From positions 17,120 to 81,119 of the forward strand of contig JBAZZC010000002.1 in assembly GCA_041658985.1 (NCBI GenBank): a stretch of DNA of 64,000 nt. The letters run 5' to 3'. Position numbers and translations under genes: made by a program. Each line of letters starts with the position of its first letter. Position 1 is the first letter of the stretch. The notes below the pieces were generated by a model that was not told where the DNA came from, ran no database searches, and saw only the letters and a list, made by a program, of their open reading frames with translations. This document shows positions 1-47,004 of the stretch, piece by piece. This DNA is from Minisyncoccota bacterium. GTDB lineage: Bacteria > Patescibacteriota > Minisyncoccia > Phycocordibacterales > DATDWN01.

Positions 1-1473
1 AGAGAATACGCTCAACAAAGAGGATATGATGTCGTAAAGGTTTTCAGGGATAGTTGCACGGGTGGAGGAGATTTTATGAATAGACCAGCAATGTCAGCCC
101 TTTTAGCCTTTCTGGATAAGGACCCAGTAAATAGTTACTTCGTGGTTTTTGATGATTTGAAAAGATTTGCTCGTGATACTGTATTTCATATCAAGCTAAG
201 ACGAGAGCTTGACGCTAGAGGAGCAACAGTAGGATGTCCGAACTTTACCTTTGAAGAAACACCAGAGGGTCAATTTATTGAAACAATAATTGCTGCTCAA
301 GGAGAGCTAGACAGAAAACAAAACCAAAGACAAGTGATACAGAAAATGAAGGCTAGGTTTGAGAAAGGATATTGGACTGTTGTTGCTCCATTAGGATACA
401 AGATGATGCAGGACCAAGTTCATGGAAAGATACTCAAAAAAGTAGAGCCTCAAGCAAGTATCATCAAAGAAGCTCTCGAAGGATTTGCTTCTGGTAGATT
501 TGAAAATCAGATTGATGTGCAGAATTTTCTACAACTAAATAAATTCAGAGGAGTAAAACCTGTTGCACTTGATTCAGTAAAAAAACTTTTGACTCGGTCA
601 GTCTATGCAGGATATGTTGAGTATGAAAAATGGAATGTGAGTAGACGAGTAGGACACCATGAACCAATTATCAGCTCTGTAATATTCCAAGAAATTCAAG
701 ATAAGCTAAATGGAAAAGTAAAAATCCTAACAAGAAAAGACAACACTAAGGAGTTTCCATTACGAGGATTTGTTCTTTGTCATGGTTGTAATAAAACAAT
801 GACAGCAAGTTGGACCACTGGCAGAAATGCAAAACACCCATATTATCATTGCAAGACAAAGGGTTGTTTTATGAAGGGAAAAAGCGTAAAAAGAAAGGTC
901 CTAGAGGACGAATTTGAGGCTATATTACGCTCTATAAAGCCCAAGGAGAAGACTTTAGCTTTAACAAAGGAAATACTACTAGATGTGTGGAATAAGAGAA
1001 TTGCTAATGTAGATATTATTCATAGAGAGCATGAAAACTCACTAGATGAGATTAGAGGAAAGATAAGAATGTTCTTAGATAGAATTGGAAAAACAGAAAA
1101 CGAAATGACAATCAAGACTTACGAAAAGGAAATGGAGAAGTTAACGCAAGAGGAGCAAACATTAGAGAATCAAATCAAAGTCATGAAAGGTAGTAGACCA
1201 GATTTTGGAACCGCTCTAGATATTACTTTTGATTTTCTGAAAAACCCTTATGTATACTGGAAGAAAGACGATTTAAAAGCAAAACACCTAGTATTGAAAC
1301 TGGTGTTTAGCGACCGATTAACATATGAACGAGGTCTAGGATTTCGAACCGCTAATTTATCCCTACCATTAAGGGTATTTGAGCTAAATCAACTAGACAA
1401 CTCTTCTTATGTGGACCCTAAGAGATTCGAACTCTTGACCTCCTCATTGCAAATGAGGCGCTCTACCAACTAA
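1..1473 (+). CDS. Large serine recombinase, 5'-truncated by the window edge. Resolvase-type catalytic domain, recombinase domain, Cys zinc-ribbon, coiled coil. Its 3' end overlaps tRNA-Ala.
   Basis: The reading frame is open from nt 1 (REYAQQRGYDVVKVFRDSCTGGGDFMNRPAMSALLAFL...). The DDLKRFARD and GATVGCPNFTFEE motifs are typical of the serine recombinase catalytic domain. There is a CHGC...YYHCKTKGC zinc ribbon. Confidence 0.7.
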   Translation, partial: REYAQQRGYDVVKVFRDSCTGGGDFMNRPAMSALLAFLDKDPVNSYFVVFDDLKRFARDTVFHIKLRRELDARGATVGCPNFTFEETPEGQFIETIIAAQGELDRKQNQRQVIQKMKARFEKGYWTVVAPLGYKMMQDQVHGKILKKVEPQASIIKEALEGFASGRFENQIDVQNFLQLNKFRGVKPVALDSVKKLLTRSVYAGYVEYEKWNVSRRVGHHEPIISSVIFQEIQDKLNGKVKILTRKDNTKEFPLRGFVLCHGCNKTMTASWTTGRNAKHPYYHCKTKGCFMKGKSVKRKVLEDEFEAILRSIKPKEKTLALTKEILLDVWNKRIANVDIIHREHENSLDEIRGKIRMFLDRIGKTENEMTIKTYEKEMEKLTQEEQTLENQIKVMKGSRPDFGTALDITFDFLKNPYVYWKKDDLKAKHLVLKLVFSDRLTYERGLGFRTANLSLPLRVFELNQLDNSSYVDPKRFELLTSSLQMRRSTN

Positions 1474-1484
1474 GCTAAGGGCCC
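1412..1484 (-). tRNA. tRNA-Ala (anticodon TGC), 73 nt, with the G3:U70 identity pair. The CCA end is not encoded.
   Basis: Reverse complement: GGGCCCTTAGCTTAGTTGGTAGAGCGCCTCATTTGCAATGAGGAGGTCAAGAGTTCGAATCTCTTAGGGTCCA. It folds as a cloverleaf. Anticodon loop is TT-TGC-AA. T-loop is TTCGAAT. Confidence 0.85.
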
Positions 1485-2422: not shown

Positions 2423-2830
2423 TAATTTAAATTAAATTTTATAACACCAGTATTGTATCATATAAAAACATGTTAAGATATGATTATAAGATAGGACATT
2501 AAAAATTAAATTAGGAACCTCTTTTCTTCTTTTTTGGTCATAGAACTTGGTCAAAAAGGAAGAGGGGGGCGCCTGACATTAGTCAGCCTATTGTGTCTCG
2601 TCAACACAATATACCAGCTTCTCTCAACTTTTATCAGTATGAAGATACTAAGAGTTGTGGGATTTGGGCTGGCTATTGTCATGCTCAAGTTCCTTATGCC
2701 AGAAATTTTCACTGGCATTGAGAACACGCTCCTCGTGTTCTTTCAAACTATCCAGACGATACTTGCAGGAAGCAAGTCGTCCATGACTGCGGGGTGGAGT
2801 CTCCCGATTCTCCCGCAGTAGGGATAGAAA

Positions 2831-3237: not shown

Positions 3238-3408
3238 AATGGAAAAAGTCTGGATTTTTAAAACAATTTTTATAATCTCTACTGATTCTGGGTTAAAAAT
3301 AAAAAAGAAAGATAGAAATAAATTTAAAATATTGTTTGGGGTTGGTGGTGAAAACCATTGACATAGTTAGTATTTGTGATATCATTAAGAAAGAAATGGA
3401 GGGAAACC

Positions 3409-3648
3409 ATGGGCCTGACTTTTTCGGGTAATTGGAACAATCACGTTTTGGCGATGGAAGAGTGTTGTGCTGGTCGTGGGAGAATGGAGATCACTCTCTC
3501 CGACGACCAGGAGCGAAAGCTCCAAAACGGCGGACTTGTCTCCCTGAAGGAGCGAGTCTCGCCGAGTCTCGCAGAGTGTCTCTCCGTCCGTCCCCATTGG
3601 CTCTCCGCGCCAGCGGCGCTCGTGGTTGATGCGACGAAGTCGCGCTGA
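3409..3648 (+). CDS. GC-rich small protein, cassette copy 1 (about 80 aa); paralog of 3861..4034.
   Basis: GGAGGG SD 5 nt before the ATG. About 60% GC in a 33% GC context. Followed by its own terminator. The MEITLSDDQERKLQNGGLVSLKERVSPSLAECL segment aligns with MEIDIPTKEYRRLLDGGLDRLKRKCSPNLASRLL of the paralog. Confidence 0.45.
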   Translation: MGLTFSGNWNNHVLAMEECCAGRGRMEITLSDDQERKLQNGGLVSLKERVSPSLAECLSVRPHWLSAPAALVVDATKSR

Positions 3649-3688
3649 CCATAAGCACCTCGCACCTCGCACCTCGTACCTTCCCGAA

Positions 3689-3722
3689 GCCGCACCTCTG
3701 CACAGGTGCGGCTTTATTCTTT
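3689..3722 (+). terminator. Intrinsic terminator: GCCGCACCU-cugcac-AGGUGCGGC followed by UUUAUUCUUU.
   Basis: Perfect 9-bp GC stem plus a T-rich tail. Confidence 0.75.
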
Positions 3723-3860
3723 GAACATAAAAACTTATTGAAATAGATCATAAATGTGTTAAGGTACAAAGCGGAGGGCAAAACATTGCCAAACTAAAAG
3801 TTCTCTGGGGATTGGGACAGACTCATCCCTGTCATGGAGGAGTACGCAAACTCCAACAGG

Positions 3861-4034
3861 ATGATGGAAATTGATATTCCAACTAAGGAATATCGGCGAC
3901 TTCTCGACGGCGGGCTAGATAGGCTGAAGAGAAAGTGCTCGCCGAATCTGGCTTCTCGCCTGCTTTTGCAAGAGGCGTTTGTAGAGGCCAGTCCGTCTCT
4001 CCTAATCTTTCACAAACCACTGCCGACGAGGTAG
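3861..4034 (+). CDS. GC-rich small protein, cassette copy 2 (possibly RHH-like: short strand then helices); the leader ORF is frameshifted relative to copy 1.
   Basis: MMEIDIPTKEYRRLLDGGLDRLKRK... About 55% GC. It has its own terminator with the same stem as copy 1. Confidence 0.4.
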   Translation: MMEIDIPTKEYRRLLDGGLDRLKRKCSPNLASRLLLQEAFVEASPSLLIFHKPLPTR

Positions 4035-4043
4035 TCTTAAGGA

Positions 4044-4075
4044 GCCGCACCCGTGGAGAGGTGCGGCTTTGTTCG
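4044..4075 (+). terminator. Intrinsic terminator: GCCGCACC-cguggaga-GGUGCGGC followed by UUUGUUCG.
   Basis: 8-bp perfect stem; same stem sequence as the terminator at 3689. Confidence 0.7.
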
Positions 4076-4125
4076 TTGAAGATAAAATTAAGGATGTTAT
4101 AATTATTGTATTATTAATTAGCTTC

Positions 4126-4237
4126 ATCCAGGCACTAACTTAGTGAGATGATAACATTTCTGCTAATCATGATTGTACATCGATGAACACGTGTTAACTT
4201 TTTATATAAGTTGTACTCATTAAGTTAGTGCCTGGAT
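4126..4237 (+). repeat. Family A palindromic leader element, divergent copy A1. Terminal inverted repeats atccaggcactaacttagtgag / ctcattaagttagtgcctggat. It ends 9 nt before the ATG at 4247.
   Basis: 21-nt inverted arms with 1 mismatch. Confidence 0.6.
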
Positions 4238-4246
4238 AAATTTATT

Positions 4247-4618: not shown

Positions 4619-4747
4619 ACGAGAAAATGTCAAAATAAAGCCAAAACAGTGTGGGGTTGTGACCTTGCATTGTTTTGTGTCTTAATGGTGTGGATAGTTT
4701 ACGGGTAATTACAAATGTTATATAATACATATATTAATATTAAATTA

Positions 4748-4884
4748 ATCCGCACACTAACATTGGTATTGTGTCTTCCGTTGCTACTGTAAGTTATCAA
4801 AGCAGAGTGATGGAAGATAAGGTAGTATAGATACTAAATCTAAACCAGACACAATTGCAACGATACCAATGTTAGTGTGCGGAT
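4748..4884 (+). repeat. Family A element A2: terminal inverted repeats ATCCGCACACTAACATTGGTAT / ATACCAATGTTAGTGTGCGGAT, with internal paired boxes tgtgtct/agacaca and cgttgc/gcaacg.
   Basis: 22-bp perfect terminal inverted repeats. It ends 10 nt before the ATG at 4895. Confidence 0.7.
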
Positions 4885-4894
4885 AAATAAAAAT

Positions 4895-5080: not shown

Positions 5081-5173
5081 AGACCGCTTTGTTTCTTGTG
5101 AGTAAAAAATGAATATGATAGAATACCTTAGACCTTAATTTTACTTGAAATAAGGAAAATTATTATTAACTTC

Positions 5174-5309
5174 ATCCGCACACTAACATTGGTATTGTGT
5201 CTCCTGTTGCTACTGTGAGTTATCAAACAGAGTAGTAGAAGATAAAAAGGTGTAGATACTAAACCTAAACCAGACACAATTGCAACGATACCAATGTTAG
5301 TGTGCGGAT
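5174..5309 (+). repeat. Family A element A3, near-identical to A2.
   Basis: Same terminal inverted repeats and internal boxes. It ends 15 nt before the ATG at 5325. Confidence 0.7.
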
Positions 5310-5324
5310 AAAAAAGATAAAGAT

Positions 5325-12057: not shown

Positions 12058-12108
12058 CTTTCAAATTTACGATAAGTGTGCTAATTTAAATCCAGAAAGG
12101 ACGTGATT

Positions 12109-12264
12109 ATGAGTAACCATCCCGTAGTAGTCACACTGGCTGTTCTTGCGATAGCACAGGCCATACCACTCATCGTGGTGGTTGCCCTGTCGTTTTTCCC
12201 ATGGGCAAAGAAGACACCGTCAGATTTCTTTTGTGATTTGTGGGAACTGATCACGAAAGGATGA
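12109..12264 (+). CDS. Small hydrophobic peptide, 51 aa, unannotated; GC-richer than its surroundings.
   Basis: AAAGGA SD then ATG. MSNHPVVVTLAVLAIAQAIPLIVVVALSFFPWAKKTPSDFFCDLWELITKG. Confidence 0.35.
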   Translation: MSNHPVVVTLAVLAIAQAIPLIVVVALSFFPWAKKTPSDFFCDLWELITKG

Positions 12265-12268
12265 TGAG

Positions 12269-12403
12269 ATGAAGCTGGTCTTCAGCGCCAAGAGAGCGAT
12301 TTGGCTTTTCGTCATTATCATGTTGCTCGGTTGTTGGCTGTCAACAACTGACACAATTGTGGGACAGCTCCTGCGATTGTTTATGTGGCTTGCTCTTCTC
12401 TAG
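12269..12403 (+). CDS. Second small hydrophobic peptide, 44 aa, immediately downstream.
   Basis: AAAGGAtgatgag then ATG. MKLVFSAKRAIWLFVIIMLLGCWLSTTDTIVGQLLRLFMWLALL. Confidence 0.3.
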   Translation: MKLVFSAKRAIWLFVIIMLLGCWLSTTDTIVGQLLRLFMWLALL

Positions 12404-20021: not shown

Positions 20022-20090
20022 TCATAAATCTTTTTTTTCATCACAATCTTTTCAGAGCAACCTTAAGAAATTCCAGCGAATTTCTTAAGG

Positions 20091-20173
20091 CCAGTCCTCA
20101 CCCTCTAGCTGTCAAGAGCCCTCGCTTCGCTCAGGTCTATGACAGCACCATGCTAGAGGGTTGCGGGGTCTCT
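20091..20173 (+). repeat. Conserved ~85-nt stem-loop element, copy 1: outer stem ccctctagc/gctagaggg, inner stem TGTCA/TGACA around AGAGCCCTCGCTTCGCTCAGGTCTA, then ttgcggggtctc. Preceded by a 12-bp hairpin at 20061-20090.
   Basis: Aligns along its full length with the copies at 35396 and 39691; the outer stems covary. Confidence 0.65.
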
Positions 20174-20208
20174 GAAAAAATTATGATTCAACAAGATTTA
20201 TTCTTTGT

Positions 20209-25072: not shown

Positions 25073-25327
25073 AGTACTCTCATCATTATTTTTTCAAGAC
25101 GCGTATAAATCGCTGTTGCGATTTTACTATTCTCACTAATCAAGAAAACAATCTTCCTCAGTACTGGCCCTTTCGCAAACTCCTCGTTGAGTACAACTTC
25201 GTCAAACAGTGCTTCGGGCTGGCGTACTTCGTCGTTGTTTTCTAATTAGTTGCGAAATGTCTTGAAAAAACAATGATTCGAGTAAACTAATAACAAGATT
25301 TTATTTACTGATATTTTATGTAATAAT

Positions 25328-28514: not shown

Positions 28515-28535
28515 GGCACTTTGTGAACACATTTT

Positions 28536-28669
28536 ATCCGCACACTAACTTTAGTATTATCTCTCCGGTTGCTTCTATGGTTGGTTAGATAAAGTAACAG
28601 TAAAAAATAAGTGTGAATAGTAAATCTGTGTTTGACATAATGCAACGATATTAAAGTTAGTGTGCGGAT
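28536..28669 (+). repeat. Family A element A4 (variant arms ATCCGCACACTAACTTTAGTAT / ATATTAAAGTTAGTGTGCGGAT).
   Basis: Terminal inverted repeats with compensating changes on both arms relative to A2/A3. Confidence 0.65.
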
Positions 28670-28711
28670 GAATTTGCATAAACAAACTCATTTACGTTAC
28701 AATAAGGAGGA

Positions 28712-30758: not shown

Positions 30759-30799
30759 CGAAATAGCCAATGTTCTGCTACTATGTAGCTCGTTGATTA

Positions 30800-30937
30800 A
30801 TCCGAACACCAACTTTAGTATTGTGTCTTCCGTTGCTTCTTTTTATAAGTAATTAGCGGATTCAGTCAAGGTATAGATTTGGTTAGTAAATCTATATTTT
30901 GGACACAGTGCAACGATACTAAAGTTGGTGTTCGGAT
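30800..30937 (+). repeat. Family A element A5 (variant arms ATCCGAACACCAACTTTAGTAT / ATACTAAAGTTGGTGTTCGGAT); ends 9 nt before the infA ATG.
   Basis: Terminal inverted repeats with double compensatory changes. Confidence 0.65.
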
Positions 30938-30946
30938 AAAATTGTA

Positions 30947-35200: not shown

Positions 35201-35395
35201 TATTAGATATACTCAATATATTGAACTTTTGTGTATACGCGTTAGCTTTTCGCAGTCCCGTACTGAGCTTTGCTCTAGTACTGGGACAAGCAAGGCTCCT
35301 CAGTGGTCAAAACGTTAGTTTTCTTTTTCACAAAATCTCTTTCTCGTCATATCTTTTGAGAGACCGCTCATCCGCCCCTGCCGGCGGATTTGCTT

Positions 35396-35476
35396 AATCC
35401 TCGGCCATGACTTGTCAAGAGCCTTCGCTTCACTCAGGTCTATGACAAGACCATGCTCATGGCCTGCGGAGTCTCC
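35396..35476 (+). repeat. Conserved ~85-nt stem-loop element, copy 2 (outer stem ggccatga/tcatggcc; inner stem CTTGTCA/TGACAAG).
   Basis: Aligns with the copies at 20091 and 39691. Confidence 0.65.
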
Positions 35477-35506
35477 CAAAAGATACGACTTCGACGAGAT
35501 TTTGTT

Positions 35507-35528
35507 TTGCTACGATATATCGTAGCAA
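35507..35528. repeat. 22-bp perfect palindrome TTGCTACGATAT|ATCGTAGCAA.
   Basis: Read directly. Confidence 0.7.
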
Positions 35529-35587
35529 ATTAAGAAGTCTGTAGTTAAGCATGTAATTACTTATATCATATGTCATAACCGATATAT

Positions 35588-35615
35588 AATTTGGTACAAT
35601 ATATTGTACCAAATT
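35588..35615. repeat. 28-bp perfect palindrome AATTTGGTACAATA|TATTGTACCAAATT; a second copy lies at 36116-36143.
   Basis: Read directly; central ATAT. Confidence 0.75.
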
Positions 35616-35642
35616 AACAATAAGGTTAAGATAATTTAGAAT

Positions 35643-35673
35643 AGGAAAACCGCCAGTCGTGCTGGGCTGGCGG
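35643..35673 (-). terminator. Minus-strand intrinsic terminator CCGCCAG-cccagcacga-CUGGCGG followed by UUUUCC, serving the small ORF 35704..35955.
   Basis: 7-bp GC stem plus a T-run on the minus strand; near-identical copy at 36172-36204. Confidence 0.6.
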
Positions 35674-35703
35674 AATTCCGCACAGCGCCACGATGGCGGT
35701 GTG

Positions 35704-35955
35704 TTACTGTTCAAAAACAATTGAACCGTTGCCCCATTCCATTCTTGACCAGCCTGCGGCCAAGTAACGAGAGGTTAGCTTACGCTCCATCTCTGCACCT
35801 GGCCTCTTACGCTGGAATGTTAGGGCGATTGTTCTGTCGTGAGCGAAATCATTTCGGGCTACCCTAAGAGCCTCGTCAATGATACGTTCCCAACCCAGCT
35901 CCTCTAAGAGTTGGCTTGGTAGAGTGGAAAATAGTCGACTTGGGCCTACTGCCAT
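35704..35955 (-). CDS. GC-rich small protein, cassette II copy 1 (83 aa; C-terminal ...YLAAGWSRMEWGNGSIVFEQ).
   Basis: SD AGGAAAGAAGGTG then ATG; about 55% GC; own terminator; paralog at 36235..36474. Confidence 0.45.
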   Translation of the reverse strand: MAVGPSRLFSTLPSQLLEELGWERIIDEALRVARNDFAHDRTIALTFQRKRPGAEMERKLTSRYLAAGWSRMEWGNGSIVFEQ

Positions 35956-36115
35956 TACACACCTTCTTTCCTCATATAAAATATCATTTTCAAATCCATT
36001 GTCAACTAATTTTGAGTATTTAAAATTTCATATTAAACCATATTTCAATCTATGTTATAGCATAGATTATACAATCTACCACATTATAAGTAGTGAATTT
36101 AATTTAGTTGGATAT

Positions 36116-36143
36116 AATTTGGTACAGTATATTGTACCAAATT
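36116..36143. repeat. Second copy of the 28-bp palindrome (AATTTGGTACAGTATATTGTACCAAATT, 1 mismatch).
   Basis: Read directly. Confidence 0.75.
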
Positions 36144-36171
36144 GAAATCATATATAAATAATTTTGGCATA

Positions 36172-36204
36172 GGAAAAACCGCCAGTCGTGCTGGGCTGGC
36201 GGAA
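36172..36204 (-). terminator. Minus-strand intrinsic terminator, duplicate of the one at 35643-35673.
   Basis: Same CCGCCAG...CUGGCGG stem plus T-run. Confidence 0.6.
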
Positions 36205-36234
36205 TTCCGCACAGCGCCACGATGGCGGTTGTTG

Positions 36235-36474
36235 TCACTTGCTGAAGATGAGAGTTCCGTGATGACGGGTGACATTTGACCAACCCGTCGCTCTGTAACG
36301 GCGAATCAGTTCAGTGGTCACTCTTTGAGACGTGATCTGTCCCACGTGAACCTCGTACTGCTTGTTGTTCAAACCAAAACTGAGCATAAGTGCCCTGTCG
36401 ATCTCAGCCTCGATTTGATTGACTTCGAGCGTTTCCTCGGACGTCAATTCAAGATCCTTCGGTCCCAGTGCCAT
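36235..36474 (-). CDS. GC-rich small protein, cassette II copy 2 (79 aa; C-terminal ...RRYRATGWSNVTRHHGTLIFSK).
   Basis: TTGTTATAAT -10 box and AAGAAGGAGGTG SD before the ATG. Shares its C-terminal GW...(I/L)(V/I)F motif with the 35704 paralog. Confidence 0.45.
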   Translation of the reverse strand: MALGPKDLELTSEETLEVNQIEAEIDRALMLSFGLNNKQYEVHVGQITSQRVTTELIRRYRATGWSNVTRHHGTLIFSK

Positions 36475-36660
36475 GTGGCACCTCCTTCTTGTTGAATTAT
36501 AACATAGTTAGATTGTCTCGTCAAATAGTTTTGAAACTTCAAAAATTTATGTTAAAATAGCGTTATTATTTGAGTTTTGTTTGAAAATTTAGTAATTGGT
36601 TATTGTTTAGAAATTAGGTCAATTAGAAATTAGAAATTTGACTCTAAAATAAAGTAAAAC

Positions 36661-37736: not shown

Positions 37737-39635
37737 ATGTCTAAAACAATTGGAATAGACCTAGGAACAACGAACTCCGCCGTCGCCATTATGGAGGCGG
37801 GGAATCCCAAAATATTAGAAAATGCCGAAGGTGCTAGAACAACGCCATCTATTATTGCCATATCAAAAACTGGTGAAAGATTGGTTGGGCTTTTGGCAAA
37901 AAGACAGGCCGTAACAAACCCAAAGAACACAATCTTTGGAATCAAGAGATTTATTGGTCACACCTTTGACGACGAGGGTGTTCAGAAAGATAAGGCTGTT
38001 GTGCCCTTTGAGGTTCTTAAATCGGGAACAGGTGGAGTGAAAGTAAAAATGGCAGATAAAGAATACACGCCAGAGGAAATATCAGCCATGATTCTTTCAA
38101 AGATAAAAGCTGATGTTGAAGCAAAAATCGGCGAGAAGGTTTCTGATGCAATTATTACAGTGCCCGCATACTTTAACGATTCACAAAGACAAGCCACAAA
38201 AGACGCGGGAGCTATTGCTGGTTTGAATGTTTTGAGAATTATAAACGAACCTACGGCCGCAGCATTGGCTTATGGTTTTGACAAAGGCAAAAAAGAAGAA
38301 AAAATAGTTGTCTTTGATTTTGGTGGGGGAACATTTGATGTTTCCGTGCTTGAGGTGGGAGATGCTGTTGTAGAAGTGAAATCAACAGATGGAGATTCTC
38401 ACATGGGAGGTAAAGATATTGACCAAAAAATAATTAACTTTTTGGCTGATGAATTCAAAAAAGAGTCTGGTATTGATTTGAGAACAGATACTCTTGCACT
38501 TCAGAGACTTGATGAGGCAGCAGAAAAAGCGAAGATTGAACTTTCTACTGCAATGGAATCGGAAATAAATATTCCATTTATCACATCAGATAGCTCTGGT
38601 CCAAAACACTTACTTATTAAATTAAGTAGAGCAAAACTTGAGGAGCTAACTACCGAATTCATAGACAGGGCAATGTCTATTACAAAAAGAGCCATGGAGG
38701 CTTCTGGATTTGCAATATCTGACATTCATGAAGTTATCCTTGTCGGTGGTCAAACTCGTATGCCAAAAATGGCTGACAAAGTTAAGGAGTACTTTGGTAA
38801 GGAACCTAATAAGTCAATTAACCCAGACGAAGTTGTGGCTCTCGGAGCGGCTATACAGGGGGGTATTATGTCAGGGGACGTGAAAGATGTCCTACTTCTT
38901 GATGTTATACCGCTCTCGCTTGGTATAGAGACAATGGGAGGTGTTAGTACGAAGCTTGTGGAAAGAAATACAACCATTCCAGCCTCTAGGTCACAGGTTT
39001 TTTCAACCGCAGCCGATAATCAAACATCTGTGGAGATTCATATTGTCCAAGGTGAAAGAGCCATGGCAAATGATAACAAGTCTCTGGGGCGGTTCATTCT
39101 AGACGGGATTCCACCAGCACCACGAGGCATGCCACAAATTGAGGTTTTGTTTGATGTGGACGCAAATGGTATCTTGTCAGTTAAGGCAAAAGACAAAGCT
39201 ACAAGCAAGGAGCAATCAATTCGCATTGAAGCTCGTTCAGGTCTCTCAAAAGAAGATATTGAAAAAATGCAAAAGGATGCCGAGGCTCATGCGTCTGACG
39301 ACTTGAAGAAAAAAGATTTGGTTGAAGCGAAAAATATAGGTGAGCAACTTATTTACACAGCCGAGAAATCACTTCGTGATGCTGGTGACAAAGTTCCTAC
39401 AGAGTTACGAGCCTCAATTGAAAATAAAATTACAGATTTAAAGAAAGCAAATGGAGGTGAGGATATGGAGCAAATCAAAAAAACTACAACCGAGCTTTCT
39501 ACAGAGCTTTCTAAAGTAGGGGAGATAATAAACAAAGCAGCTCAAGAAGCAAATAAAACAGCTGAGGCGGGAGCTACGACAGCAGGGGAGGAGAAAGTTA
39601 GGGATGCGGATTTTGAGGAGAAGAAGGCGGAATAG
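37737..39635 (+). CDS. dnaK: Chaperone DnaK (Hsp70).
   Basis: [13 protein letters not shown]..., [10 protein letters not shown], 632 aa. Confidence 0.95.
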
Positions 39636-39690
39636 TTTTTAAATAATAACTCCTCAAAAACACTCGGCTTCTTCCTGCGGAAGCCTCGTT

Positions 39691-39775
39691 CAGTCCTCGA
39701 CCCCTCGTTGTCAAGAGCCTTCACTTCGTTCAGGTCTATGACAACACCAAGCTCGGGGTCTGCGGATGTTTCTCG
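39691..39775 (+). repeat. Conserved ~85-nt stem-loop element, copy 3 (outer stem gacccc/ggggtc; inner stem GTTGTCA/TGACAAC).
   Basis: Aligns with the copies at 20091 and 35396. Confidence 0.65.
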
Positions 39776-39825
39776 GGGGTATTATTCTAAAAACTATTTT
39801 AGAGAGTGAGAAATGATAAATACGC

Positions 39826-39870
39826 AAAAACCCACCAACGAAAGTAGACTAGTGCGTCCGATCCCAGATG
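39826..39870 (-). terminator. Minus-strand terminator (degenerate copy of the CCCACCAAC...GUUGGUGGG UUUUUGCG hairpin).
   Basis: One of three near-identical about 45-nt sequences (39826, 40113, 40462), each after a small minus-strand ORF. Confidence 0.5.
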
Positions 39871-39877
39871 ATGGGTG

Positions 39878-40048
39878 TTACAGATGTTTCTTTTGGAAGA
39901 GTGTCCAAGCCTCAACAAACTCCTGTTCAGTCAGGTGACTGTTCACCATTCTGAAGTTCGCCTTTATGCTTCGATTGATCTCTGACCAAATAAAGCGACA
40001 GACGATGGTTACTCCCATGAAAAATAGTCCGAGCATGAACCATTCCAC
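39878..40048 (-). CDS. Small single-TM protein, about 56 aa; cassette III copy a.
   Basis: AGGAGG SD about 6 nt before a GTG start; hydrophobic N-terminus; own terminator. Confidence 0.35.
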   Translation of the reverse strand: MEWFMLGLFFMGVTIVCRFIWSEINRSIKANFRMVNSHLTEQEFVEAWTLFQKKHL

Positions 40049-40112
40049 GATATTACCTCCTCTTAGGATAATAAAATATATTGATAATATAGCCAAGTGC
40101 AATAATTAAAAA

Positions 40113-40165
40113 AACGCAAAAACCCACCAACGAAAGTGGACTAGTGCGTCCAGTGCTGGTGGGGC
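40113..40165 (-). terminator. Minus-strand intrinsic terminator CCCCACCAGC...GUUGGUGGG followed by UUUUUGCG.
   Basis: 9-bp stem (1 G:U) plus T5. Confidence 0.65.
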
Positions 40166-40169
40166 AGTT

Positions 40170-40409
40170 TCAGGACTTGGGAAGATTGCGGATGTTGCAG
40201 GTTGTATATCCCATCACAATCTCAGCCTTGTACAGGTCATCTCGCTTTTTGAGTTGCCAGATCTTTGCTCCCAAATGGATCCACCCAAGATCGAATAGAT
40301 GTTTCTCAGCGCTGACGATACTCCTGAGACGCCCGCAATCACGAAGGTGAACGAAAATGAGACCATTGTACCTGCTTACTCGAATTGTCCAAAACCAATT
40401 ATGTGGCAT
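40170..40409 (-). CDS. GC-rich small protein, 79 aa; cassette III copy b (contains the FWTIRVS motif).
   Basis: ACCAGGAGGACAGTTCC then ATG; paralog of 40517..40792. Confidence 0.45.
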   Translation of the reverse strand: MPHNWFWTIRVSRYNGLIFVHLRDCGRLRSIVSAEKHLFDLGWIHLGAKIWQLKKRDDLYKAEIVMGYTTCNIRNLPKS

Positions 40410-40461
40410 GGAACTGTCCTCCTGGTACTGATAATACATTAGAAATAATGAATGTCAATTA

Positions 40462-40510
40462 CGCAAAAACCCACCAACGAAAGTGGACATTTGCGTCCGT
40501 GTTGGTGGGG
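40462..40510 (-). terminator. Minus-strand intrinsic terminator CCCCACCAAC-loop-GUUGGUGGG followed by UUUUUGCG.
   Basis: Perfect 9-10-bp stem plus T5. Confidence 0.7.
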
Positions 40511-40516
40511 TATGAT

Positions 40517-40792
40517 TCAAGCCACTTGCTTTGGGAGTTCAGAGATGTCGAGTTGATGTCGAACCTCGATAAGGATAGCACTATACACGATGCTACCGAT
40601 TTCGAGTCGCCACGGCCTCAGGACTGGTTTATTAGTGTACACACCATCAGCTTTCTGCCAGCCGTTGGTCTTTAGAAGATTTGTGGCTGAATCAAGATGG
40701 TTTTCGTCAAACAACCCGAAATCTCCATGTCGATAACGCAGACTACCCGTTATCATCGACACACGAATTGTGTAAAACTTCGTGGCTTTCAT
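40517..40792 (-). CDS. GC-rich small protein, 91 aa; cassette III copy c (contains the FYTIRVS motif).
   Basis: GGAGG SD 7 nt before the ATG. Aligns with the 40170 paralog at F.TIRVS....G....H..D.G and a GW motif. Confidence 0.45.
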   Translation of the reverse strand: MKATKFYTIRVSMITGSLRYRHGDFGLFDENHLDSATNLLKTNGWQKADGVYTNKPVLRPWRLEIGSIVYSAILIEVRHQLDISELPKQVA

Positions 40793-41008
40793 AGAATGGC
40801 CTCCAACTGGAAATCATATCAGATAATTGTTGAATGTCAAGTATACTTATCATAAAAAAATCATATAATAAGCACTACAATAGAACTTTCAGATTTAAGC
40901 CAAGATCAAGGCGGGATGAGAAAATGTGAGGAGCCTTACTTGTCGTAAGGTGACGAGAATTTTTGAAATTCCAACGCAGATATTGGCCAAATGTGGAAGT
41001 TATAACAT

Positions 41009-42095
41009 TATGGCAAAAGATTACTACCAAACATTAGGCATTGATAAAAAAGCCTCAAAAGACGAAATCAAAAAGGCCTTTAGGACTTTGGCGCACAAGT
41101 ATCATCCTGACAAAAAGACTGGAGATGATGCTAAATTCAAGGAAATCAACGAAGCCTACTCCATACTGTCAGATGATGGTAAAAGAGCTCAATATGACCA
41201 GTTTGGGAGCAATTTTGGTCAATCTGGAGCTGGGTATGGTGGACAGCAAGGAGCTGGTTTTGGTGACTTTGACTTCTCACAGTTTACCCAAGGCGGACCA
41301 GCCTCAGGCTGGGAGTTTGATTTTGGTGATTTATTTGGTAATGCCTTTGGAGGTACTCGTCGTAAGCAAGCCAAAAGGGGGCGAGATATTTCAATAGACA
41401 TTGAACTCTCATTTGAGGAATCGGTTTTTGGCGTGGAAAGAACAGTATTGTTAAATAAAGTTTCAAAATGTGATGTCTGCGAAGGAACTGGGGCAGAAAA
41501 GGGCAGTGAGATGATTAAATGTTCAACTTGTAATGGCAAGGGCCAGATAAGAGAAGTAAAGAGAACCTTCTTTGGACAGTTTGAAACAATGAGCACATGC
41601 GAAACTTGTCTGGGAGCAGGAAAAATTCCAAAAGCAAAATGTTCAGTTTGTCGTGGGCAGGGAATATTGAAAAAAGAAAGTGAAATCAAAGTAAAAATCC
41701 CAGCTGGAATTGACAGTGGGGAAATGATGCGCCTAACAGGCGCAGGTGAAGCTGTTTCTGGTGGCCAAACAGGGGACTTGTATATCAAAATTTATGTTAA
41801 AAAACATCCAACATTCAGAAAAGACGGACACAATCTCTTAATGGACCTAAATATTAAACTCACTGATGCACTTCTCGGCGGTGAGGAGACAATAAATACA
41901 TTAGACGGGGCTTTAAAAGTAAAAATACCGGAGGGAGTAACTCACGGAGAAACTTTACGAATAAAATCTAGAGGGGTTCCATATGACAGAGGTTATCGTG
42001 GAGATATTTTAATAAAACTCCATATCTCCATACCAAAAAAACTTTCCAAAGAAACAAGGCGTGTGATTGAATCTCTCAAAAAAGAAGGAATATAG
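41009..42095 (+). CDS. dnaJ: Chaperone DnaJ.
   Basis: MAKDYYQTLGIDKKASKDEIKKAFRTLAHKYHPD is the J domain. A G/F-rich region follows, then four CxxCxG zinc-finger repeats. Confidence 0.9.
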
Positions 42096-46497: not shown

Positions 46498-46668
46498 CTT
46501 TAGTGTGTCCTCCTTGAGGGCACACTAAAGATGAATACATTTTACAAACACGGCGCAAAGCTTGTGTCGTAAAATGTATTCTCCCCCATCTACCATTAAA
46601 AAGATTCAACCTGACGCATTATAGGAGGTCGATTCTCGCCTCTTCGGCGAGTCCGTCGTTGAGACGGA
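46498..46668. other. Cluster of four consecutive strong hairpins (10-bp, 13-bp, 5-bp, 6-bp stems) in a convergent intergenic region; candidate structured ncRNA or stacked terminators.
   Basis: CTTTAGTGTG...CACACTAAAG; GAATACATTTTAC...GTAAAATGTATTC; TCGCC-tcttc-GGCGA; TCCGTC-gttga-GACGGA. Confidence 0.3.
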
Positions 46669-46765
46669 TTTAGTATCCAAAAAAATAATTTTACTAGGGG
46701 ATTGGTTATAATCAAAAAACATCCTAAAAATAGGATAACTCCCCTACTCGCACATCATTGTCTTA

Positions 46766-46987
46766 TTAGAAGGTTGGAGCTTTATTAACTATCAAATTTC
46801 TTATTACATCATCCAGCCAATTGTAAAGAATTTTGAAAAATGTTATTGCTGGTTGAATTATTTCTTGGGCCTTAGGTGACCTTAGCCATTCCAATAGGTC
46901 AAAATGCAAAAAATATTTTAAAGCTATTACCGCAATTATTAATAAAATTATTCTTCCTATAAAACCTTTATTGTTAGTTAAATTCAT
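46766..46987 (-). CDS. Small membrane protein, 73 aa.
   Basis: Single TM helix. Confidence 0.4.
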   Translation of the reverse strand: MNLTNNKGFIGRIILLIIAVIALKYFLHFDLLEWLRSPKAQEIIQPAITFFKILYNWLDDVIRNLIVNKAPTF

Positions 46988-47004
46988 ATGGCTATATTAT
47001 AAAG

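Follow-up and report, generated by a model that had tools for sequence, protein, structure and literature searches.

Small palindromic repeats are characterized by terminal inverted repeats (TIRs) that hybridise, by sites that are filled or empty, by modular mosaics and by effects on genes co-transcribed with them (PMC2649163, PMC2229807, PMC3049150). The duplex formed by the Correia elements of Neisseria (CREE/NEMIS) is bound, cut or protected by RNase III (PMC2649163, PMC2229807). The effect of enterobacterial ERIC and Yersinia YPAL on mRNA depends on their orientation, and YPAL, which is not AT-rich and has no TA ends, inserts at or beside dyad symmetry and shows filled and empty sites between species (PMC2229807, PMC3049150). 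In the CIR repeats, two arms are accompanied by a conserved motif that a loop exposes, and the RNA fold is phylogenetically conserved (PMC3049150, PMC2229807).

We analyzed a stretch of 64,000 nucleotides of DNA (the window) from a genome whose DnaK is 85-92% identical to Zambryskibacteria proteins. CPR/Patescibacteria have tiny genomes, in which repeats and regulatory RNA are usually considered scarce. The window carries three copies (c1 to c3) of a structured element of which related genomes hold three more (c4 to c6). The reading that we prefer, with a probability of about 0.5, is that the element represents a new lineage-restricted family of MITE-like mobile palindromic repeats in a Zambryskibacteria-like lineage (Paceibacterota, CPR), perhaps acting as a co-transcribed processing or stability module.

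Copies of the element and their predicted fold

We observed that a 35-nt core, TGTCAAGAGCCYTCRCTTCRYTCAGGTCTATGACA, occurs three times on the + strand of the window, at 20110, 35413 and 39709, whereas shuffled sequences lead us to expect none. The core regions of c1 to c3 align without gaps across ~88 nt, and a covariance model trained on these three copies and on c4 from another genome gives the window copies 101-106 bits, the next best match in the window reaching 13 bits even with filters off. Thus, the three copies reported by the initial annotation are real. Their extent had been given as a stem-loop of ~85 nt; folding and inverted-repeat searches revise it to 157-180 nt, about twice that estimate, with a predicted three-way junction, which adds the helices P1 and P2, and with TIR-like ends. 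The features are as follows.

20024..20202, + strand: full element c1, in the spacer between yceG/mltG (stop 20021) and mnmA (ATG 20233)
about 20027-20057 and 20170-20199: P1 arms of c1 (20033-20057/20170-20194 in the inverted-repeat search)
20061-20090: P2 of c1, loop CCAGCG
20095-20099 with 20163-20167: P3a of c1
20100-20107 with 20154-20161: P3 of c1
20108-20120 with 20134-20146: P4 of c1
20147-20153: 3' bulge of c1, ACCATGC
35328..35507, + strand: full element c2, in the spacer between rpsI (stop 35200) and grpE (36661)
35330-35364 with 35471-35505: P1 of c2, 35-nt arms, complementarity 80%
35370-35389: P2 of c2, loop CCTGCC
35394-35481: core of c2
39629..39800, + strand: full element c3, in the spacer between dnaK (stop 39635) and dnaJ (ATG about 41010)
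39631-39662 with 39767-39798: P1 of c3, of subtype 2 (AAACA/TGTTT), likewise found in the Zambryskibacteria copy c4
39666-39685: P2 of c3, loop TTCCTGCG
39690-39777: core of c3
end sequence of the element: AAAATCTCTTTCTCGTC...GAGAC
2730..2815, + strand: region of a claimed fourth copy (TCCTCG, about 55 nt, CCATGACTGCGGGGTGGAGTCTCCC)

The degenerate fourth copy that had been claimed at 2786-2815 did not hold up, as the model, run with filters off, finds no match there up to E<=10. What is left is a 12/13 match to GTGGAGTCTCCC, of which roughly 0.07 are expected by chance; the region, which is not significant, can be no more than a decayed relic.

All sites are short spacers separating co-directional housekeeping genes. 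The element begins within ~10 nt of the upstream stop codon in four of the six copies, c2 and c5 starting 128 nt and 280 nt after it, and the dnaK stop codon falls within the 5' arm of P1 in c3. Each of the six copies has the orientation of its flanking genes (two-sided p about 0.03). The core has a GC content of 51-57%, compared with about 34% for the genome, and so does not have the A+T richness by which MITEs are recognized. Inspection of open reading frame lists and sequences revealed no conserved ORF on either strand of the element, and a coding reading was rejected. We also noted that the cumulative GC skew reaches its maximum at about 46500-47000 of the window, where gene orientation flips from + to -, which suggests that the replication terminus lies there; all three window copies are on the left arm relative to this putative terminus.

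In the predicted fold, a long closing helix, P1 (18-35 bp), encloses a P2 hairpin and an irregular P3a-P3-P4 hairpin with conserved bulges. The stem of P2 is variable and its loop, CCWGCG, is conserved, being counted in all six copies. A GC hairpin that had been described upstream of each copy is indeed present, but it is the element's own P2, and its stem is AT-rich rather than GC-rich in copy 1. For the stem earlier called the outer stem, covariation is borne out: with six copies, P3 shows changes on both sides in 6/10 columns, and 93% of the cells of P3 and outer P4 are paired, compared with 30-39% when the partner is slid; the observed covariation is reached by 0/500 shuffles. The added claim that these stems differ completely fails, since two C-G pairs of P3 are invariant or nearly so. 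The last two columns of the former outer stem covary perfectly with the pair of bases immediately 3' of the inner hairpin, to which they are paired; they belong to P4, and P3 is therefore 8 bp long. RNAalifold also delineates an unpaired 3' bulge of 7 nt, conserved as ACCRWGC, a single bulged A and a single bulged G, and pairing between the conserved flanks TCCTC and TGCGGR (UCC.C with G.GGR), in which c6 carries a compensatory C-G to U-A change. Used independently of the hand-drawn structure, the same program recovers P1, P3a, P3 and P4. In the full-length alignment of six copies it predicts 45 pairs, 24 of which still pair despite changes on both sides, and P1 supplies 16 of these 24.

These observations establish that the element is structurally constrained and that its stems covary, and complementarity holds in the additional copies as well as in those of the window. 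The interleaving of conserved bulges and loops with stems that have diverged yet stay complementary suggests that a single strand has to fold, perhaps as RNA or perhaps as DNA while being mobilised. Apparent compensation can arise in long palindromes without selection, through the template-switch process known as quasipalindrome correction. Such correction could mimic part of the compensation, but it would not preserve the conserved bulges.

At the Rfam gathering threshold, the window yielded a match to tRNA alone, and permissive searches with both strands of c1 and c2 produced only noise at or below 18 bits; the families that went unmatched include hammerhead, twister, twister-sister, pistol, hatchet, HDV-like, group II intron domains and T-box. 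BLAST against phages and plasmids gave no match to the element, and the 79 matches from three scans of viral contigs were chance matches, all rejected by the covariance model. Thus, the Rfam, phage, plasmid and viral collections contain no repeat, a possibility raised at the outset, and no RNA family of which the element would be a fragment, and the family is new with respect to these libraries. Inspection by eye led us to reject IS200/IS605 ends, group II domain V, a T-box-like UGGN bulge and a K-turn, for each of which the defining sequence or the partner gene is absent. A retron msr-msd was likewise rejected: no reverse transcriptase lies directly downstream of the window copies, which are followed by mnmA, by cassettes and then grpE, and by cassettes and then dnaJ, respectively, and the only one seen, a 447-aa protein (RVT_1) at 1-1067 of L031/L032, is 13 kb upstream of c6.

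Hammerhead, twister, pistol and hatchet ribozymes often ride on mobile DNA, and one can ask whether the element is a new small catalytic or ligand-binding RNA class, such as a self-cleaving ribozyme on mobile DNA. The three-way junction, the invariant bulge and loop nucleotides among freely covarying stems, the patchy multi-copy distribution, the association with mobile-looking DNA and the lack of a known family match would all suit such an RNA. However, we recognize no catalytic core, c5 has a replaced distal half of P4, the six sequences give no evidence of tertiary contacts, and a long, sequence-conserved P1 is more typical of TIRs. We consider a catalytic or ligand-binding RNA highly improbable.

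Filled and empty sites in related genomes

A scan of related genomes had been suggested, and three further copies were found. One true match came from pattern-scanning 185,579 species genomes and one from pattern-scanning the JGI metagenomes; both are c4, the remaining matches being coding-sequence coincidences. This copy occupies the rplB-rpsS spacer of Ca. Zambryskibacteria RIFOXYD1_FULL_40_13, with a GC-rich insert of 900 bp after it. Copies c5 and c6 were found by walking homologues of the flanking genes. The former, in the rpsI-grpE spacer of L021, scores 43.6 bits, and the distal half of its P4 is replaced or shortened while the junctions and the bulge are retained; the latter, in the pepF-alaS spacer of L031/L032 (a RIFOXYD1-type genome), scores 84 bits. 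There are thus three copies in the 64 kb of the window and at least two in the RIFOXYD1-type genome.

Other sites in these relatives lack the element. In L017, the closest relative by DnaK (92% identical), the dnaK-dnaJ spacer is 20 bp long and has no element, and the rpsI-grpE spacer, of 84 bp, holds just a short hairpin that resembles the base of P1 and may be a remnant rather than a sign of a true empty site. The yceG-mnmA spacer, which carries c1 in the window, measures 37 bp in L031 (9964-10000). Within this 'empty' spacer we noted TTCGGGAGATTGTG, which resembles the right end of the element, TTCGACGAGATTGTG, and which, judged by this resemblance, may be a relic of a lost copy. Where both are readable, the window genome and the RIFOXYD1-type genome have no element site in common.

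The similarities among copies do not follow the loci. Copies c2 and c6 belong to separate genomes and to separate loci, yet their P1 arms show 89% and 84% identity and share the same internal mismatches. Their P2 and P3 stems are not alike, and MnmA is just 71% identical between these two genomes. Copy c2 is nearer to c6 than to c5, despite c5 sharing its rpsI-grpE spacer. There are two P1 subtypes, GAGAC/GTCTC and AAACA/TGTTT, and each is represented in both genomes. The empty sites in relatives, together with the finding that the most similar copies occupy different loci in different genomes, lead us to class the element as a mobile or dispensable repeat.

These data bear directly on whether the element is instead a host-encoded, vertically inherited, cis-acting structured RNA (a 3'-UTR stabiliser, a processing site or a protein-binding regulator) that streamlining has removed where it is absent. 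Strong covariation with conserved bulges and loops, sense orientation in every copy, and starts just after the stop codon in most are what one would expect of it. So are the compensatory nature of the differences between c2 and c5 in one spacer of two species, and the basal hairpin retained in the rpsI-grpE spacer of L017. But the flanking genes (mltG, rpsI, dnaK, rplB and pepF) have no common function, two sites are without the element in the closest relative, and c2 resembles a copy at another locus of another genome more than its same-locus counterpart. In addition, the window and RIFOXYD1-type genomes share no site, and terminator-like hairpins after rpsI lie upstream of c2 and c5, placing both behind terminators. 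Vertical inheritance of this kind seems to us unlikely. The initial annotation had suggested a 3'-UTR processing or stability element; a co-transcribed module of that sort may be retained as a putative role, but a stem-loop of 85 nt in a 3' UTR does not by itself describe a three-way-junction element with TIR-like ends that behaves as a mobile or dispensable repeat. The terminator-like hairpins ahead of c2 and c5 count against such a module acting in the sense RNA.

The element is short and non-coding, its copies share TIRs, and they are dispersed over sites that are filled in some genomes and empty in others, as in MITEs. Classic MITEs are AT-rich, and the element departs from a plain MITE in being GC-rich, in having no visible target duplication and no transposase in the sequence covered, and in the few copies seen. 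The flanks of c1 to c6, whose exact ends are not defined, show no evident direct repeat, and about 600 kb of sequence (the window plus related loci) contains no transposase and no IS with matching ends. A conserved core among stems that are fully diverged yet complementary is, moreover, a pattern that typifies functional RNAs more than transposon copies in decay. We also observed that two independent short-read assemblies of the same species end near the site of c2, L016 at 83 nt after rpsI and L029 inside rpsI; breaks at or just before c2 are expected if the region is repeated or polymorphic.

For a MITE-like repeat with these properties, we envisage the following mechanism. The element would spread or be lost as a DNA unit, mobilised in trans by a putative enzyme, and its interior would have to fold as a single strand. 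Most likely, it would be co-transcribed with the host operon, where the long basal duplex and the conserved irregular core could form a module for processing or for protection of 3' ends. RNase III-type cleavage or protection, after the example of the Correia elements, would make insertion into operons tolerable, and in our working model a protein would recognize the irregular hairpin.

Several other repeats in these genomes are listed below.

25073..25288, + strand: 'family B' element, possibly related to the present one, with another interior, in the pepF-alaS spacer
25075-25100 and 25259-25284: P1-like arms of the 'family B' element (TTTTCAAGAC/GTCTTGAAAA), then a P2-like hairpin
window 4123-4240, 4744-4888, 5171-5312, 28533-28672 and 30797-30940, and L021 1935-2075: members of a second inverted-repeat family

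The spacer of the 'family B' element in the window is the one that holds the family-A copy c6 in the Zambryskibacteria genome (L031). Similar P1 and P2 helices with other interiors occur in this element, at L017 6623-6752 and at L019 11916-12052, and in one of these, as we read the arm alignment, the order of the end-specific arm segments is inverted. Next to c6, a module of 60 nt from the 'family B' element is present in reverse complement (L031 14507-14575). The P1-like arms and the reversed module indicate that these repeats are modular and get rearranged. The second inverted-repeat family is unrelated; its long arms of 25-29 nt (TTAATCCGCACACTAACATTGGTATTGT / ACGATACCAATGTTAGTGTGCGGATAAA) are spaced about 87 nt apart, and each member stops just ahead of a gene start. 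The sense strand folds better in the two of its spacers that were folded. The copy in L021 has a promoter-like TGtTATAAT inside its loop, so just read-through transcripts would include both arms.

GC-rich cassettes and the strand that folds

Copies 2 and 3 adjoin GC-rich cassette arrays, as had been stated and as we confirmed. The arrays and the features discussed with them are as follows.

35508..36660, - strand: two GC-rich antisense ORFan cassettes (ORFs 35955-35704 and 36474-36235)
39801..41009, - strand: three GC-rich antisense ORFan cassettes (ORFs 40102-39878, 40439-40170 and 40792-40517)
window 3376-4080: third GC-rich ORFan cassette array, with no element there
L019 8240-8700, L023 12100-12370 and L025 12197-13780: comparable GC-rich ORFan arrays in relatives
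1411-1484, minus strand: tRNA-Ala, sole match of the tRNA/tmRNA scan in the window

The ORFs of the arrays are about 43-55% GC and about 26-33% identical, each with a near-consensus promoter and with a terminator hairpin that is conserved within the array. The promoters in the rpsI-grpE array are sigma-70-like, and its cassettes have conserved double-hairpin terminators (35640-35700 and 36170-36230); every cassette of the dnaK-dnaJ array ends in ACGCAAAAACCCACCAACGAAAGTGG... (39823, 40116 and 40461), a minus-strand terminator. Two of the three window arrays, those in dnaK-dnaJ and rpsI-grpE, are antisense to essential operons, and several related genomes hold comparable antisense ORFs in the same two spacers. 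The cassette proteins have no Pfam match, and among 5.8 billion proteins the 83/79-aa cassette family matched only itself.

The initial annotation had proposed that the element marks an insertion site for such cassettes. On a related reading, the element would be a folded single-stranded DNA recombination site, a landing pad like integron attI/attC or Xer/dif, that captures GC-rich ORFan cassettes. Consistent with this, cassettes directly follow c2, c3 and c4, and copies adjoin two of the three window arrays (rough chance about 0.006 if spacers are equivalent); the conserved extrahelical bases and the asymmetric unpaired spacer recall attC, and cassette ends are conserved within an array whose ORFs are distantly related or ORFan. 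Nevertheless, c1, c5 and c6 have no cassette, and since relatives carry equivalent cassettes in the same spacers without the element, the link between the two is not exclusive, which weakens the insertion-site idea. The cassettes also possess their own promoters and terminators, and no repeat of the element end bounds the arrays. The aligned copies contain no RYYYAAC/GTTRRRY boxes and the window no tyrosine recombinase, its sole recombinase being a serine recombinase at 76-1473, and on these grounds an integron attC/attI assignment was rejected. We judge a landing pad to be quite unlikely. As a candidate core shared by element and cassettes, the 10-mer TGCGGATGTT at 40187 was discarded as being at chance level. 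The simplest reading is that cassettes and elements are separate inserts gathered in the same permissive spacers, of which the adjacent cassettes would be independent occupants.

There are other possible inserts. At window 76-1484 (L026 10950-16724), the serine recombinase, a large protein with Resolvase, Recombinase and Zn-ribbon domains, has a gene that overlaps tRNA-Ala on its 3' side. Past the left end of the window come a trypsin-like protease and about 10 small ORFs without annotation, and this region is probably an integrated element. A near-perfect palindrome of 28-30 bp, TAATTTGGTACAATATATTGTACCAAATTA, follows each cassette of the rpsI-grpE array (35587-35616 and 36116-36143), and a variant follows c5 (L021, about 1822-1850), where there is a relic of a promoter and Shine-Dalgarno sequence and no ORF. 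This palindrome could be a recombination site or an operator. The window spacer at 12058-12403, which is GC-rich from 12100 to 12403, has a sense-strand folding energy of -109 kcal/mol over 346 nt and no Rfam match. An RNA reading was rejected because, by eye, two small GC-rich hydrophobic ORFs appear to lie there, and 12100-12403 is possibly another acquired cassette.

The two strands of the element differ in their folding. In c1, c2 and c4, folding of the antisense strand is favoured by 12-19 kcal/mol, an advantage also seen in most related elements, against a window background in which the sense strand is favoured by +3.7 +/- 8.8. Likewise, sense-strand mismatches in P1 comprise 16 A.C and 5 G.T (p=0.027; the counts are not fully independent, and a mutational bias between strands, A>T in the sense direction, could contribute). 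Such asymmetries would fit an antisense (minus-strand) sRNA or RNA domain, for example the 3' end of a cassette transcript or an independent sRNA. Two C.A pairs at distal P4, which are U.G on the antisense strand and intermediate between two Watson-Crick states, are compatible with it, as is the reverse complement of P2 in c3 and c4, which with its U-run resembles a minus-strand terminator. However, the core also contains the sense-specific wobbles U5.G77 (c1) and U20.G54 (c5), c1, c5 and c6 have no antisense gene downstream, and the cassette at c4 is on the sense strand. Nor is there a consistent minus-strand promoter: a minus-strand TTGACA within the element has no -10 partner, and promoter scans gave no consistent match. 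Thermodynamics and mismatches lean, if anything, to the antisense strand, and the core evidence is split 2 versus 2, so that either strand may be the one that folds; an antisense RNA is in our estimation improbable. On the + strand, the terminator scan calls no intrinsic terminator at any copy, and a U-rich run after P1 is present in c2, more weakly in c1, and not in c3-c5.

Comparison with known systems

On the preferred reading, a structured and apparently mobile element sits in core-operon spacers (rplB-rpsS, dnaK-dnaJ and rpsI-grpE). Being hot spots for GC-rich ORFan cassettes as well, these spacers would point to unrecognised plasticity of CPR genomes. The covariation supplies a fold that experiments can test, and should this fold turn out to be cut by an RNase, to be a recombination site or to be a ribozyme, it would offer a handle on expression or gene capture in an uncultured lineage. 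A bolder proposal, which we regard as a long shot, is that the irregular hairpin serves in the CPR as the recognition module for a structure-specific system not yet described, either a landing pad that seeds antisense ORFan cassettes or a mobile-borne catalytic or protein-binding RNA. Were the landing pad to prove true, it would be an integrase-independent or Xer-like, integron-like platform of a new type for gene capture within essential operons.

Of the described systems with arrays of captured genes, attC offers several likenesses: a shape-recognised imperfect hairpin, extrahelical bases, an unpaired central spacer, covarying stems, and ORFan arrays nearby. Unlike attC, the element has no R/L core boxes and no IntI, its neighbouring cassettes have promoters of their own, and it is not repeated between them. 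The distal hairpin is the conserved part of the element, whereas the distal part of attC is variable.

The Correia elements, like the present element, are non-coding interspersed repeats of ~100-160 bp with pairing TIRs around a conserved core, and they occupy sites beside or between genes that are filled or empty between strains (PMC2649163, PMC2229807). Correia elements are co-transcribed (PMC2649163, PMC2229807), as the present element would be. Correia copies differ in that they are near-identical in sequence and AT-rich, duplicate a TA target and can create promoters; the present element has fully diverged yet complementary internal stems, is GC-rich, shows no target duplication and contains two internal hairpins, which give it a three-way junction. 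ERIC/IRU and YPAL/RU-2 are likewise imperfect palindromes, of 127-168 bp, in transcribed intergenic regions (PMC2229807, PMC3049150). They have no sequence similarity to the element, YPAL makes target duplications of 3-26 bp, of which none is seen here, and these families reach tens to hundreds of copies per genome. The pneumococcal BOX and RUP repeats and CIR of Caulobacter are modular, with TIRs that hybridise in predicted RNA structures (PMC3049150, PMC2229807), and relatives of the element also seem to swap interiors, as family A and family B do in the pepF-alaS spacer. Their modules and sequences are different, and they are without the interleaved conserved bulges and covarying stems. On present evidence, the most economical course is to place the element among the known small palindromic repeats.
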